A stretch of 64,000 nt of DNA. Origin: Octopus vulgaris (Eukaryota). Positions 5,474-63,803 of the stretch are shown one piece after another. Location: assembly GCA_951406725.2 (NCBI GenBank), contig OX597826.1, forward strand, positions 68,076,001-68,140,000, given 5' to 3'. The notes beneath the pieces were generated by a model, which was not told the origin of the DNA, ran no database searches, and saw nothing but the letters and a program-made list of their open reading frames with translations. The position numbers and the translations under genes were made by a program. Each line of letters opens with the position of its first letter. Within the stretch, counting starts at the first letter, position 1.

Positions 5474-6061
5474 CAACAATAATAGTTTCAAATTTGAACA
5501 CAAGGATAACAAGTTCTGGAAAGGGGGTAAGTCGTCTACGTTGAACCCAATGTTCAACTGATACTTATTTTACCAACCCGAAAATGATGAGAGGCAAAGT
5601 CAACTTCGACAGATTTTTAGCTCAGATCAAATCATATTGACAGTTGCATTTTCTGAGTTATTTATTTTCTTCAATTCCCAGTAACGTGTGAAATTAGGTA
5701 TTTCTTTGAAACAACTTTTCCTTAGTGTTCATCAAGTTCTTCTTAAGCATGTTGTTATAGAAAACATATCTTGTGATGACATGAGGATATTTTGGAGATT
5801 AATTTAACGACGTTGCTGAATAGGTTATTCAAATTGATAAGAGCGGTTTTAGAAATGTTGACAATATACTCGGATGCTTATCTTCGTTCTCTGTGAGGCT
5901 TATATCTGTCTGTGGCGAAATCTAATGTAGCATACGAGAGAATGGTACGATGTTTTGATTATATAGCAATTTCGATGTTTAGTCACCATTCCTTGAAACT
6001 ACTAAGTATGTCTCCAGGTTTGGTCTCTTTCTTAATGTGCCTTAGTATTATCTGAGATATG

Positions 6062-6510
6062 AGGCAGCGAGCTGGCAGAACGGATACGCACTGGGCAAAA
6101 GGCTTAGCGGTATTTCGTCTGTCTTTACGTTCTGAGTTCAAATTCCGCTGATGTCGACTTTGTCGTTCAACCATTCGCGGTCGATAAATTAAGTACCAGA
6201 TGCGTACTGGGGTCGGTCTAATCGACTGCCCCTTCCCACCCCCCAAAATAATTCGGGCCTTGTGCCTAGTGTAGAAAAGAATATTACCTGAGATATAAGG
6301 CAGCCAGCTAGCAGAACGGATATGCGCTGGGCAAAAGGCTTAGCGGCATTTCGTCTGTCTTTACGTTCTGAGTCCAAATTCCGCCGAGGTTAATTTGACT
6401 TATAACCTTTTGGGTTCAATAAAATAATTACCAGTTGAATACTGTGGTCGATGTAATCAATTTGCTCCTCCTTCGAAATTGCTTGCCCTGTACCAAGATT
6501 TGAAACCAAT
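6062..6510 (+). mobile_element. Two tandem SINE family B copies (Meta/MESC-domain-like)
   Basis: Both read AGGC.GC.AGCT.GCAGAA…GTTCTGAGT.CAAATTCCGC… followed by the family core. A further decayed copy lies at about 6577-6780. Confidence 0.8.
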
Positions 6511-6854
6511 GCCATCTGAGATGGTTATGCCGTTATCACTGTACATTCCTCTATCAGATGATATTTAGTTCAATGAAGGCGACGAGCTGATAGATTAGTT
6601 AACATAGGGTCAAAATGCTTAGTGTTACATATGTTCTGAGTTCAACTACCCTCACAGTCAAATCTGCGTTTCGTCCTCTCGGGCACGAGGAAACGTATCA
6701 TTACAGTACTAGAGTCGATGCAATCAACAAGGCTCATCAATCAAACTTCCATGTCTTCTGCCAATATTAGAAATGATATCTACTTCGACGAAATTGGAAA
6801 ATTCGGTAAATTTCAGATGACACACATTGATATTGCATAAAAGAATGTATTATG

Positions 6855-6889
<35 letters not shown>

Positions 6890-7366
6890 TTACAAATGCA
6901 CACACGTAATAATCTTTTCGCTCTCTGTCTCTCTGTCTGTCTGTCTCTCTTTGTATATAAATGCTTTATTACATTGAGGGCTGTTACCCTACGTAAGCCA
7001 CGCGTGTGGCTTTATTTACAGTAAAATTCCTTAATATAATAATGTATTTAAAAAAAAAATTATATACTTTGTATTAAATTTTACTATCTTTGGTTTTACA
7101 CGTTGAGATGTTTAATTGATATATATATATTAACGGTCTACTGGTAAAATTCAGGCTATAAAATTTGTTGAAAGTTGCGATATATTTCCACGTAAGGTGA
7201 ACATAATTTTCGTATGATTCCGTAACTTCGAAATTTCTTTTATTCTAAAGAAGAAGGCAGTGATTTAGAAGAATCATTAACACGCTGGACAAACTGCTCA
7301 AAGGTATTTCACCAGTCTTAACGTTCTGAGTTCAAATTCCTGCTGCGGTCGATTTTGCATTTCATC

Positions 7367-14728: not shown

Positions 14729-14787
14729 TATATTATATTATATATATTATATTATATTATATTATATTATATTATATTATATATATT

Positions 14788-15365
14788 AAATAAAATGAGA
14801 CAACAAAGCCGAAGCTATGTGGAATTTTCCGGATATGTATAAAGATGAAATTAGCCTTACAGCTGTTTCTAGGATATTAGGGATATCCCTTCAGCAGAAA
14901 CGAAGAGAGATGATGGTTAAATAGAGGGAAATATTAGAATTCAATATAAGGAATTATTTAGAAAAAGGATGGAAATGGGGAATATAGGGGGGGGGGGGAA
15001 ATAGGAGAATTAATGTAAAAATAAAAATAAAAACAAGAATATATAAGAATGTTATAGGTGCATTTCCATTATACAAGGAAAGTGATATCGATAATGGACC
15101 TGCAATTATAACAGCTTTATACATTGCATTCTTATTTTCTTCTACATACGTTCTCTTATTTCCCTACACACTCCTATTTCTTTCCTTTTCTAAAACAACT
15201 CCTTATATTGAACTCTAATATTTCCCTCTATTTAACCATCTCTCATCGTCTCTCATGAAGGGATATGGCTAATATCCCAGAAACAGTTGTAAGACAAACT
15301 TTCTCTTTGTAAAAGTCCTGAAAATTCCACACAGCCTTGGTTTTGTTGTCTCAGATTATTTAACA
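14788..15365. mobile_element. Penelope-like inverted duplication, each arm carrying a mutated hammerhead motif
   Basis: About 14788-14970 is the diverged reverse complement of about 15183-15365. The plus-strand motif at 15248-15295 reads GTCT-CTCATGA-A-GGGATAT..ATATCCC-A-GAAAC-AGTT-GTA-AGAC. The minus-strand motif at about 14853-14900 has core CTGCTGA and GAAAC-AGCT-GTA. Confidence 0.7.
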
Positions 15366-15490
15366 TATATTTTGCTCATAAAAGACCCACGTTAGACTTG
15401 TATTATTATCGAACCGAGAGTTTAACTACGGTCCTTACATAGTTTTTACATACCGCTATCTGCTACCTTGGGTCTTCTGGATACCAAACC

Positions 15491-15544
<54 letters not shown>

Positions 15545-15546
<2 letters not shown>

Positions 15547-15866
15547 ATTATAATAAATTAGAGACAAAACCACTATTATGCAAATCAAACAAAAAAAAAA
15601 GACTTAAGCCAATACATAAAATATAAAATAATTTATATAAATTAAAATTTAACAAATGAATAACCACTTCATAGTTTATAACTCGCTAAGAAGGTTTAGA
15701 AACCACCTGAAGAATGTCTAAGATGTGCTGACACGAAACGATCGTAGTGGTTATTCATTTGTTAAATTTTAATTTATATAAATTATTTTATATTTTATGT
15801 ATTGGCTTCAGTCTTTCTTTGTTTGATTTGCATAATAGTGGTTTTGTCTCTAATTTATTATAATAT
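15545..15866. repeat. Long inverted repeat (about 120-bp arms) of a Penelope-like terminal repeat
   Basis: 15545-15668 is the reverse complement of 15746-15866. It is flanked by (TA)n, and the element continues to about 15945. Confidence 0.9.
15701..15752 (+). ncRNA. Minimal type I hammerhead ribozyme with intact core
   Basis: Stem I AACCAC/GTGGTT, core CTGAAGA, stem II TGTC…GACA (A·C at the base), then GAAAC, a palindromic GATC loop and a GTA cleavage triplet (15744-15746). Confidence 0.85.
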
Positions 15867-15941
15867 AATATTTTATTATAAAATTGGATTCAATCTTAAA
15901 TCTGATTTTTCCTTGTAAATTTGGATTTATTCCCTAATATT

Positions 15942-16682
<741 letters not shown>

Positions 16683-16823: not shown

Positions 16824-16902
16824 CTCCTCAGACTGAAAAAGCTATAACGATGAACAACCTTAGTCGATTTTCGAACCTTATTGGGTTCTCATCAGAGGAG
16901 TC
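16824..16902 (-). ncRNA. Degenerate hammerhead-like motif
   Basis: The minus strand reads CTCCT-CTGATGA-GAACC-CAATAA-GGTTC-GAAA…AGTCTGAGGAG. The core and stem II are clear, but the stem III/I geometry is imperfect. Confidence 0.45.
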
Positions 16903-18628: not shown

Positions 18629-18818
18629 AAGATATATGCATATAAAATTTAAAGGACTGACCACTAAAAGTGGACAGTCAATATGCTAGATATAGACGTG
18701 AAAATCGCTATTTTCCACGAAGAATGTGTTCTGAATTAGCGATTTTGATGTCTATATCTAGCATATTAACTGTCCACTTTCAGTGGTCAGTCCTTTAAAT
18801 TTTATATGCATATATCTT
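18629..18818. repeat. Inverted repeat with about 82-bp arms and a 26-bp spacer
   Basis: AAGATATATGCATATAAAATTTAAAGGACTGACCACT…ATCGCTA pairs with TAGCGAT…AGTGGTCAGTCCTTTAAATTTTATATGCATATATCTT. Confidence 0.9.
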
Positions 18819-41434: not shown

Positions 41435-42377
41435 GGTCTGTTTATTTTGTATTTACATATTTACAAGGTTTTCTTATTGACACTGAAAGTACGGCATTAT
41501 GAGAACAAATAGTGAATGTTTCTTGTAAAGTCTAACGCAAGAAACCTGCAGACTCTGAAAATGCAAAAGAATAGATCACGTGGACTGTTTCCTGCCGATC
41601 TACTTTTCAAAATGGGGTACATAACTGAGATAACGAAATTGCACTATACGTATGGCTTCAGGATTTATTTCTTAGTATTCTTGTAGAATGAAGATGCTAG
41701 TTTCTAATATGGAATCAAAAGTACCATAGCTGGAATTCTGATAACAATGGTAACAGCTACATAATGAATTTTAGCAAAAACCATTTGTATTCTTACAGTT
41801 TTGCAGTTCCCTATCCGTCAAGTTTGAGTTAACTTGTCACTTTCGTTGCTTGATAATACTAATTTCCTGCTAAACTTAATAAGATTGTGGCTTAAACATT
41901 GACGAGGATAACCAAATGCATATGCTAGAAATCGGAATTTATCAGGGCAGGGGAGCTTATTCAAAACCCTGTTCATAGATATTCACATTCTCTTTGATTT
42001 TCGAAGACATGTTCTTATGTACAGTGTAGACAATCTTCATGAGTAAAGACGCCTTTCATTTCTGTCCCAAATAACTAAATCGTGTGTCTTATTTATGAAC
42101 TTGTTAAGCATTTTAATGGGATTGTTCCCTCAATAATCTTCTATATGTATGTTATGTACGTACGCATGTATGTATTTTTTCCAAAAAATTTCATCAAAGT
42201 AAATTTCATGGCAGCATATTCGAAAACCTTTAAGGCGAACATTATAAACAATTTATTAACAAGGGCAAAAGAAAAAATATTTCTATCCCAATATGATGAG
42301 AATAGACTTTAAATCGTCAATCACCACATTATAATATACATTCACTATGAATAGACGTCGTGTTGAAATAGAGGAAG

Positions 42378-42481
42378 GCAAGCTAACAGAATTTTTTTAT
42401 TATTTTTAATTATTTTTAACGAATTTTTTATAACGAATTTTCTTTATAAAACGAATATTTAAAAAAATTCTGTTAGCTTGC
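42378..42481. repeat. Short foldback/MITE-like element with about 20-bp inverted ends
   Basis: GCAAGCTAACAGAATTTTTTT pairs with AAAAAAATTCTGTTAGCTTGC. The interior holds AACGAATTTT repeats. Confidence 0.7.
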
Positions 42482-42597
42482 AACGTGTATTCATGATGAA
42501 TGTATATTTTAATGTGGTGATTGAGGATTTAGTCTATTCCCAGCATATTGGTATAGAAATCTCTTCTTCTTTTGCCCTTGTTTATAAATTGTATATA

Positions 42598-48639: not shown

Positions 48640-49780
48640 TGGGCAGCTGGCCCAATCGCTAGCACGCCGAAAAAAATGATAGAGACATTTCTTCTGTCTT
48701 TACATTCTGAGTTAAAAATTCCGCCGAAGTTGACTTTGCTTTTTCAACCTTTGAGGGTCGCTCTAATGAGGACCAGTTGAGCACTGCGCTCGTTGAAATC
48801 GAATAACCCACTCCCAAAGAATACTCTTCATTTCTCTAGGCAGAAGGTCCGAAATTTTTAGGGAGGGGGAAGTCGATTAGATTGACCCCGATACGCAACT
48901 CGTACTTACTTTATCGAGCCGAAAGAATGAAAAGCAAAGTCGACCTCGGCGGAGTTTCGAACTCAGAATGTCATGATAGACGAAATTCCGCTAAGCATTT
49001 TGCCCGGCGTGCTAACGTTTCTGCAGACTCACCGCCTTACTCTCAGTGAATACTCTTTTCTAATCGAGGCACAAGGCCCGAAATTTTGGGGCAGAGGGCT
49101 AGTCGATGAGATCGACTCCACTACGCAACAAGTACTTAATTTATCGACCCCGACAGGATGAAATGCAAGGTTGACCGCGGCGGAATTTGAACTCAGAACG
49201 TAAAGACAGCCTGATGAAGGCTGGAGGGTATATCAAACGAAACGTTGTGTTAACAACAAAGAAGAAGACAAATATACGTCAAATGTAAATAATGTAAATA
49301 ATGTACATAATTCCGCATCTCTTAAATATAGAACCAGACGTAATACCCAGAGAGCACAAAGAGGAACAGACACACAGATTAAGTCGATTACATCGACCTT
49401 AGTGCATAACTGGTACTTATTGAATCAACCCCGAAAGGATAAAAGGCAAAGTCGACCTCGGCGGAATTTAAACTCAGAACGTAGCGGCAGACGAAATACT
49501 GCTAAGCATTTCGCCCGGCGTGCTAACGTGTATGCCATCTGGTTTATGCCTTACTCCCAATGAATATTGTAACACTTTGGGCAGTGAACTGGCAGATCGG
49601 AAGCATGCCGGTCAAAATGCAGAGTAACACTTCGTCCGTCTTTAAGTACTGAGTTCAAAATCCGCCCAAGGTTATTTCCGGGTCGTTAGAATAAGTACAA
49701 GCCGAGCACTGCTGTCGATGTAATCGACTTTCTCCCTACCCCGGAGCTGCTCGCTTTTGCCAAAATTCAGAACCAATATT
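48640..49780. mobile_element. Cluster of about five SINE family B copies in both orientations
   Basis: Repeated GTCGACCTCGGCGGA.TTT..ACTCAGAA (minus) and plus-strand head/core motifs. Confidence 0.8.
49210..49334 (+). mobile_element. 5'-truncated copy of the hammerhead-bearing element (same family as 63337-63803), inserted in a SINE
   Basis: It reads C-CTGATGA-AGGCTGGAGGGTATATCAAAC-GAAAC-GTT-GTGTTAAC…CTCTTAAATATAGAAC and is flanked by CAG on both sides. Confidence 0.8.
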
Positions 49781-63336: not shown

Positions 63337-63441
63337 GTTTGTTGTTAACACAACGTTTCGGCTGATATATCCTCCAGCATTCATCAGCTGACTTGAGGAA
63401 ATTTCGAGCCTGGGTTTTCATTTCCAAGGTATTTTTTGTGG

Positions 63442-63472
<31 letters not shown>

Positions 63473-63560
63473 CATTCAGGTCACTGCCTGGAATCGAACT
63501 CGGAATCTTGGGGTTAGTATCCAACGCTCTTAACCACTACGCCATATGACTTGAATAATG

Positions 63561-63605
<45 letters not shown>

Positions 63606-63803
63606 TCGAAAAATACCTTAAGAATGTGAACGAACGTTCGAAATTTCCCCAAGACACCCGATGAATGCTGGAGTGTATATCAGCCGAAACATTGTGTTAA
63701 CTAAAAGACAAAAAAAAAGAGGAGGACAAATATCCGTCATATTTAAATAATGTATATAATCTATATAATGTACATAATTCCTCAGCTCTTAAATATAGAA
63801 CTG
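63337..63803. mobile_element. tRNA-headed, hammerhead-bearing element in head-to-head inverted arrangement
   Basis: The minus copy (63551 to 63337) has a tRNA-like head (A box TGGCGTAGTGG, B box GAGTTCGATTCC), (TAA)n, a linker and CTGATGA…GAAACGTTGTGTT. The plus copy (63547 to 63803) has (TAA)n, the linker, GACAC-CCGATGA-ATGCTG…CAGCC-GAAAC-ATT-GTGTT and a tail. Confidence 0.8.

Follow-up and report, generated by a model that had tools for sequence, protein, structure and literature searches.

Six head-to-head insertions from four sequence families carried U6 snRNA joined at the predicted cut of a hammerhead ribozyme, in both arms. Judged from the genomic sequence, these joints are likely fossils of ribozyme cutting in living germ cells. 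The palindrome described here lies in a 64,000-nt stretch of Octopus vulgaris DNA (the window), on contig C13 of the 2.8-Gb genome. It reads as a processed copy of the 5′ mRNA leader of a Hydra-clade Penelope-like element (PLE), since spliced arms exist in its family and their 5′ ends share one point.

The inverted repeat and its hammerhead lay where the preliminary description had placed them, with arms at about 15547–15668 and 15746–15871 and a cut predicted to follow 15746. The left arm repeats the right one in reverse complement, and complementarity ended at 15668/15746 (15669 T vs 15745 T). The palindrome and its flanks were composed as follows (^ marks a joint or a cut):

15498–15532, no strand: left target flank, a (TA)n tract
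15547–15668, minus strand: inverted tail-less arm, a leader copy reaching from the cut region to the tail-less 3′ end (about +125)
15666–15668, no strand: ACT microhomology, common to the end of the left arm and the 5′ end of the right arm
15666–15693, plus strand: leader exon 1, from the putative transcription start, TSS (ACTTCATAG)
15693–15694, plus strand: splice junction AAG^GTT
15701–15752, plus strand: minimal hammerhead of type I whose stem-loop III is palindromic, with the cut predicted after 15746
15746–15871, plus strand: direct arm, the portion mirrored by the left arm
15872–15945, plus strand: PLE 'tail' of about 70 nt, on one arm only
15946–16119, no strand: right target flank, a (TA)n tract

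A chance palindrome was rejected as a reading of the window, and tblastn detected no RT in it. More long inverted repeats were present in the window (14779–15370, 16120–16535, 18629–18818, 42243–42597, 48654–49020 and 63344–63701). Some of them, at least, adjoin microsatellites, and they are probably other PLE-type head-to-head insertions. Another (TA)n-flanked repeat contained a hammerhead-like motif with an imperfect stem III at 16858–16899 on the minus strand (CCT CTGATGA GAACC..GGTTC GAAA ATCGAC TA^AGG).

Stem I of the window hammerhead is formed by AACCAC (15701–15706) and GTGGTT (15747–15752). The core comprises CTGAAGA (15707–15713), stem II (15714–15734) and GAAA (15735–15738), followed by the palindromic ACGATCGT (15738–15745) and then GTA, with the predicted cut after 15746. 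This was the sole match of a strict motif scan over the whole 64 kb. The minimal type I PLE core was present (CUGANGA, GAAA and NUH), together with a helix I of 4–6 bp and a short palindromic helix III that permits a dimer; stem III itself consists of two pairs around the palindrome. The conserved G10.1-C11.1 pair was missing. The position is A.C here, likewise in most subfamily-A copies, and A.A, A.G, A-U or U.U in sister subfamilies. An Rfam scan of the window gave no match at the gathering score, and the monomer fold was no more stable than shuffles (z 0.2). A dimer through the ACGAUCGU palindrome was favourable (−27.8 vs 2 × −9.1 kcal/mol). The hammerhead had been called intact, which holds for its core, stem I and NUH, but not for 10.1-11.1, the Rfam score or the monomer fold.

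The 16-mer immediately 3′ of the cut had 135 exact matches in the genome (3 by chance), and the common 3′ motif had 8,697 over several subfamilies. Three loci (L024, L028 and L255) were unspliced, with a 1,329-nt GT...AG intron that stands between the equivalents of 15693 and 15694 and ends just before the ribozyme. The junction in L024 and L028 was AAG^GTAAGT...TTTTAG^GTTTAG. The window copy is spliced, because these three loci show 15666–15693 as an exon before the intron. Among 129 sampled arms reaching at least 58 nt 5′ of the cut, 95 were exon-1 spliced, 30 were unspliced and 4 were spliced from an upstream donor (donor 1); all three isoforms were present as genomic DNA. The 5′ ends of the spliced arms accumulated at a single point, and the main 5′ end of the family is a putative TSS rather than the cut. 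Unspliced copies have TTACTTC there, which we take to be Inr-like. Directly before the TSS unspliced copies have T, whereas 17 of 31 rows had G at this position. This is what a copied cap would give; the argument is weakened by microhomology, by which about nine of these rows are explicable, and by two loci that were counted twice.

The ORF-bearing partners L242, L259 and L407 contained RIKWK, DKT, PMG, YRDD, CxCx5C and a C-terminal (A)V/IYIGST. Twelve open frames over 780 aa were present in the 30 loci examined, all 12 with DKT and the CxCX5C linker, as in L407. The N-terminal motif reads RIKWK, not literally RWK; PMG/YRDD and AVYIGST were read by eye, and a GIY regex gave no match. Pfam recognized neither RT nor GIY-YIG, and nothing relevant, in the partner ORF. 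Atlas look-alikes (at 0.95–0.97) had GIY-YIG in 31–50% and RVT_1 in 18% of members, and the GIY-YIG ones serve as a lead only. A metagenome scan with the RT gave two weak matches (27% identity), which were set aside. In ORF-bearing copies the ORF begins about 70 nt after TTCCCTAAT. The order in L259 is ORF, 3′ UTR, donor 1, promoter region, exon 1, donor 2, acceptor, hammerhead and tail, and the next ORF starts about 70 nt beyond the tail. Four contig runs (none recorded as RNA) on the unspliced L136:400–1850 contained no splice joint; ends are not visible this way, and the result argues neither for nor against.

Some copies had further peculiarities. L242 and L186 are ORF-bearing and spliced from the upstream donor, whereby the putative internal promoter is lost (unit of 2.98 kb). 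L255 and L256 (C1) are near-identical 4.7-kb head-to-head insertions in a duplicated flank, and their element is an ORF-less, intron-keeping derivative of subfamily A. In the ORFs of L242, L259 and L407, RT and endonuclease are separated by an asparagine-rich insert of the kind reported for rotifer PLEs (PMC3846280).

In this family cleavage is exceptional, because 183 of 197 position-sampled arms of subfamilies A and B continued at least 3 nt through the cut. The sample comprised 119 A rows, less 3 matches due to chance and 18 arms that the positional listing did not contain (from a score-ranked search or fetched by choice, the window's arm among them), and 101 B rows, minus one outside the listing and one duplicate. 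Fourteen of the 197 arms ended at 0..−2, where 3.3 were expected from −3..−52 (P ~1e-5). Position −9, in the palindrome, had 7 ends, equal to the highest single cut position. The preliminary description had named a sharp peak of ends at the GUA site as what would support its claim. The outcome was in its favour, with a real excess of ends there, but the peak is a minor one, the main 5′ end being the putative TSS.

Exhaustive end patterns were applied to A-like arms (n = 403; expectation about 2.3 per position). At +2 there were five matches, all by chance (0 true breaks), and at +1 there were 12 with 7 breaks. Position 0 had 18 matches and 15 broken arms, equal to 12 independent events. Three of the 5 matches at −1 were breaks, including the window's, as were 6–7 of the 15 at −2, where many matches are CpG changes. 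The zero at +3 is weak, because the +3 pattern was narrower than the others. In subfamily B, 3 of 163 arms were at position 0. Subfamily C (n = 1016), often without a perfect palindrome, had a weak excess of about 25 arms over 3 nt (0.8%/nt vs ~0.33%/nt, the latter a rough background from 30 arms read by eye). Most of its 45 position-0 matches are a GTT variant, not breaks: of 30 inspected, 26 ran on and 1 broke at −4.

The 18-mer at +59 is unspecific for subfamily A (791 matches), so arms anchored there form their own unbiased sample and not a denominator for A. In this sample, 22 of 99 arms ended at +4..+11, the base of stem I. Apart from the TSS, no cluster was larger (3.5%/nt, with 0.45%/nt 5′ of the cut). 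These ends may have been trimmed after cleavage, or RT may have stalled at stem I; in the first case, about a quarter of the arms would derive from cleaved RNA. In L339, the core between the stem I strands was replaced by a short (TA)n that ended at the cut.

Two of the six U6 insertions, L425 (C4) and L431 (C25), hold full-length U6 (Rfam RF00026, 1–105/105). Their joint reads TTTTT^GTGG in both arms, and flanks and central joints differ between the loci. They were first met in a cut-targeted search, among position-0 matches; the other four were found without targeting the cut. U6 3′ ends were listed regardless of PLE (259 exact matches), and 97 were examined, namely 94 of the first 100 listed and three from a separate targeted search. 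This positional listing yielded L510, L568, L569 and L583, each a head-to-head pair between (TA)n flanks with U6 in both arms; here U6 was recognized from sequence identity alone. Their joints lie directly after the NUH of hammerhead-like folds in three families, H2–H4, as read in intact relatives; for L510, the joint was predicted before its family was fetched. The fold of H2 (412 arms) is AAACG ATGAATA ... GTAAAC CATG GT[C/T]^CGTTT, with a non-canonical core (A3-U8, GTAAA). H3 (three copies with small differences) reads CAG TTGAAAA AGTC..GACT GAAA CCGG TA^CTG, and H4 (two partial copies) reads ACCGGT[T/C]^ATTTCT with AGAAAT TTGAAAA upstream. The H2 and H4 joints are uncertain by 1–2 nt, because some copies have T in front of the cut. 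A search for further U6 joints in H2 returned only L510, and no U6-PLE palindrome joined elsewhere than at the cut was present among the 97 U6 ends. Of the four families, the one of L425 and L431 has an ORF linked to it.

Hammerhead cleavage leaves a 5′-OH end. RtcB joins the U6 cyclic phosphate (U6>P) only to a 5′-OH, and mature U6 ends in five U (PMC6789731). From the base-exact U6 joints it follows that an RNA 5′ end existed at the predicted base, used by ligation or template jump, and addition of U6 by RtcB is likely.

The listing of U6 ends also showed that 62 of the 97 (L480–L529, L560–L599) have a SINE-like head of one of four repeat types within a few bases. These are either SINE insertions into the U6 T-tract or U6-SINE chimeras. 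Other examined U6 3′ ends resemble genes or tandems. Beside the U6 palindrome of L431, a third arm (L431:1980–2175, the same as L433) ends in ATATTTTT^GTGG, and is possibly a third cDNA from the same U6-chimeric RNA.

For the window copy, it had been claimed that the breakpoint falls within 1 nt of the cut, and that the inverted arm is a cDNA of an RNA whose 5′ end was made by the ribozyme. The arm does end at 15668, but this does not fix one base: because ACT is common to the two arms, the break may be placed at any point between +2 and −1 of the cut. The right arm is full-length, spliced and uncut from the TSS through the ribozyme. With an uncut partner and a 3-nt microhomology at the joint, the origin of the left arm from cleaved RNA is not established. 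Such an arm, untrimmed and AC/GT-paired to a full-length cDNA, would fit the sequence exactly with neither end trimmed, and the U6 and peak evidence argues that the family cleaves. Yet the partner arm points to uncut RNA, while both arms seem to come from one template. In addition, 56 arms ended near the cut, and all 8 of them with a long partner, the window's included, map at −1/−2, none at exactly 0. ACT/AC sites distant from the cut are joined to the TSS end equally well (L006, L011, L030, L113, L013 and L035), and L216 and L327, of other subfamilies, have this ACT joint too. It is thus doubtful that the window joint marks a cleaved template; trimming or stopping at ACT is its probable origin. 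The footprint of in vivo cleavage that had been read from this one copy is weak there, but it stands at the level of the family, in the excess of ends and the six U6 joints. That most inverted arms stop at the cut was rejected: 24 of 33 run past −1, and 15 reach −74..−81 (in 17 more loci no inverted arm was scored, which is wrong for a few of them).

We consider it quite probable that the window holds a head-to-head pair of spliced leaders in (TA)n, copied from one sense RNA and joined at ACT, in a family where a minority of transcripts is cleaved in the germ line and U6 is sometimes joined. The PLE protein would cut both strands of its (TA)n target, and the two target ends would prime RT at two internal leader sites, giving one arm with the tail and one without. 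RT starts at internal leader sites would therefore yield leader-only copies of ~270 nt. The cDNAs would extend to the RNA 5′ end, which is mostly the TSS, sometimes the cut site, or run through a ligated U6. Their two 3′ ends would be joined by microhomology-mediated repair, often with templated inserts such as those at the joints of L004, L008, L018 and L023. The hammerhead would cleave a minority of germ-line transcripts, probably with a need for a dimer or protein help, and the cut product would sometimes be joined to U6 snRNA, likely by RtcB, before copying.

We infer that both arms are copied from one sense RNA, because U6 was in both arms (6/6), each arm of L431 holds sequence missing from the other, and arm lengths are correlated. 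Near-cut ends co-occurred in both arms (10/12, P 1e-4). Partners of near-cut arms were short in 32 cases vs long in 8, against 47 vs 47 (P 0.001); about 5 rows were classified wrongly, and the ratio by eye is ~28:10. Transposition does not appear to require cleavage. Cleavage may serve to free the leader or the unit from read-through RNA, or be incidental.

Other mechanisms were weighed against this one. Ends at the hammerhead could arise without any cleavage in vivo if RT stalls at the folded ribozyme, AT-rich microhomology repair joins the ends, and U6 is added by template switching at the stall. Such stalling may still account for the 22 arms ending at the base of stem I, and Min-HHRs are described as cleaving poorly in vitro (PMC4209133). 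However, stalling would not lead one to expect that ends are missing at +2/+3 and then peak at exactly 0, or that U6 follows NUH to the base in four sequences with stems I of 3–6 bp. The supply of microhomology alone does not place ends either, because a 14-nt perfect AT palindrome at ~+24..+37 is rarely used as an end site. We regard an origin of all ends without cleavage as improbable. Somewhat unlikely, too, is a route in which cleavage is real, U6 comes from an RT template jump at the cleaved end, and the second arm forms by fold-back of the cDNA, with the loop flipped in some loci. Fold-back of a full-length cDNA onto ACT yields precisely the window structure and makes identical U6 joints in both arms trivial, and self-priming was proposed for PLE palindromes (PMC3846280). 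But the tail-less arm exceeded the other in length in 11 of 30 A/B loci with unequal arms, in 13 of 23 in the A2 sample, and in the U6 locus L431; fold-back would therefore need frequent flipping. Against the template jump, the joints carry five T, which is the mature U6 end (PMC6789731).

An antisense transcript as template, also proposed in PMC3846280, would explain the head-to-head repeats and the intron kept in 30 of 129 long arms. We give it hardly any credence: 95 of the 129 have lost the intron exactly at GT-AG sites of the sense strand, and U6 stands in the sense direction at the cut of the sense RNA. For spliced and U6 copies it was ruled out. A broader reading has, in our estimate, slightly better than even chances. 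In it, minimal PLE hammerheads would cleave in the germ line, RtcB would add U6 to the 5′-OH product, and this single sense RNA would be copied two times by a dimer of the PLE RT, once from each start site, to give the head-to-head insertion. It would cover the non-canonical cores as well (A3-U8, U3-A8 and an extra base after G12).

The element class, the inverted arm and the tail are already known. Searches of open-access main texts turned up neither a U6-PLE chimera nor a spliced genomic copy of a PLE; these families may be among those in the Hydra supplement of PMC8557442. The base-exact U6 joints in four families provide DNA-only evidence on in vivo cutting by minimal PLE hammerheads, and would validate unusual ribozyme cores that escape Rfam. 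A sense RNA template, with both arms from one molecule, is what the spliced copies and the U6 joints common to both arms point to. The PLE mechanism is thereby constrained, and for these families the proposal of an antisense template is contradicted. If true, U6 chimeras are a fossil map of active self-cleaving ribozymes, minable in any genome.

The family resembles the Hydra-clade PLEs (Craig et al. 2021, PMC8557442) in DKT and the CxCx5C linker, and, as read by eye, in a putative C-terminal GIY-YIG and an RWK-like motif. It also shares their (TA)n target, pLTR hammerhead, inverted 5′-truncated arm and tail at one end, all of which were found here, and its upstream-donor-spliced unit of 2.98 kb (L242) is alike. 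The assignment to this clade was made from motifs and layout by that description. The tail is ~70 nt here and 30–40 there, and two donors share one common acceptor, unlike in the Hydra-clade PLEs described. Short copies here are mostly spliced leaders, whereas PLEs are described as intron-retaining (PMC8557442).

Non-LTR retrozymes (bioRxiv 10.64898/2026.07.22.740005) are likewise described as short non-coding PLE derivatives with type I hammerheads. They are head-to-tail tandems, whereas the window copy is a head-to-head spliced-leader pair with a tail; it does not consist of head-to-tail tandem monomers with a hammerhead, and a retrozyme identity was rejected. A retrozyme-like head-to-tail repeat of ~350 nt was observed in the 3′ flank of L259 (~6050–6900) and in the flanks of L383 and L420, each unit with a U3-A8 hammerhead-like motif (CTGCA TTGAAAA GGGG..CCCC GAAA CGCG TC^TGTAG).

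With the minimal PLE hammerheads of Cervera and de la Pena 2014 (PMC4209133), the family shares the type I fold, the palindromic helix III and the predicted dimer. U3-A8 core variants, an intron end beside helix I, and opposite-strand pairs 100–700 bp apart are also common to both. G10.1-C11.1 is not kept here, unlike in that set. That study itself states that in vivo evidence is absent, whereas genomic evidence of cleavage at the predicted base is presented here.

As in the anole Poseidon element PAc (Frangieh et al. 2024, PMC11167929), two internal RT starts would define the tail, both strands of an AT-rich target would be cut and extended, a dimer is predicted, and uncut RNA is the main template. 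The anole ribozyme is reported there as dispensable in vitro, and as having no RNA-seq ends at the cut. The two systems also differ in the position of ribozyme and tail, which stand upstream of the ORF here and not inside it.

The U6 joints are closest to the U6/LINE-1 chimeric pseudogenes (Moldovan et al. 2019, PMC6789731), in which U6 with ~5 T is joined to 5′-truncated retroelement RNA. In the L1 chimeras the joints are variable and the nucleases are given as unknown, whereas here the six joints are at the ribozyme site of a PLE, in both arms of the palindrome.
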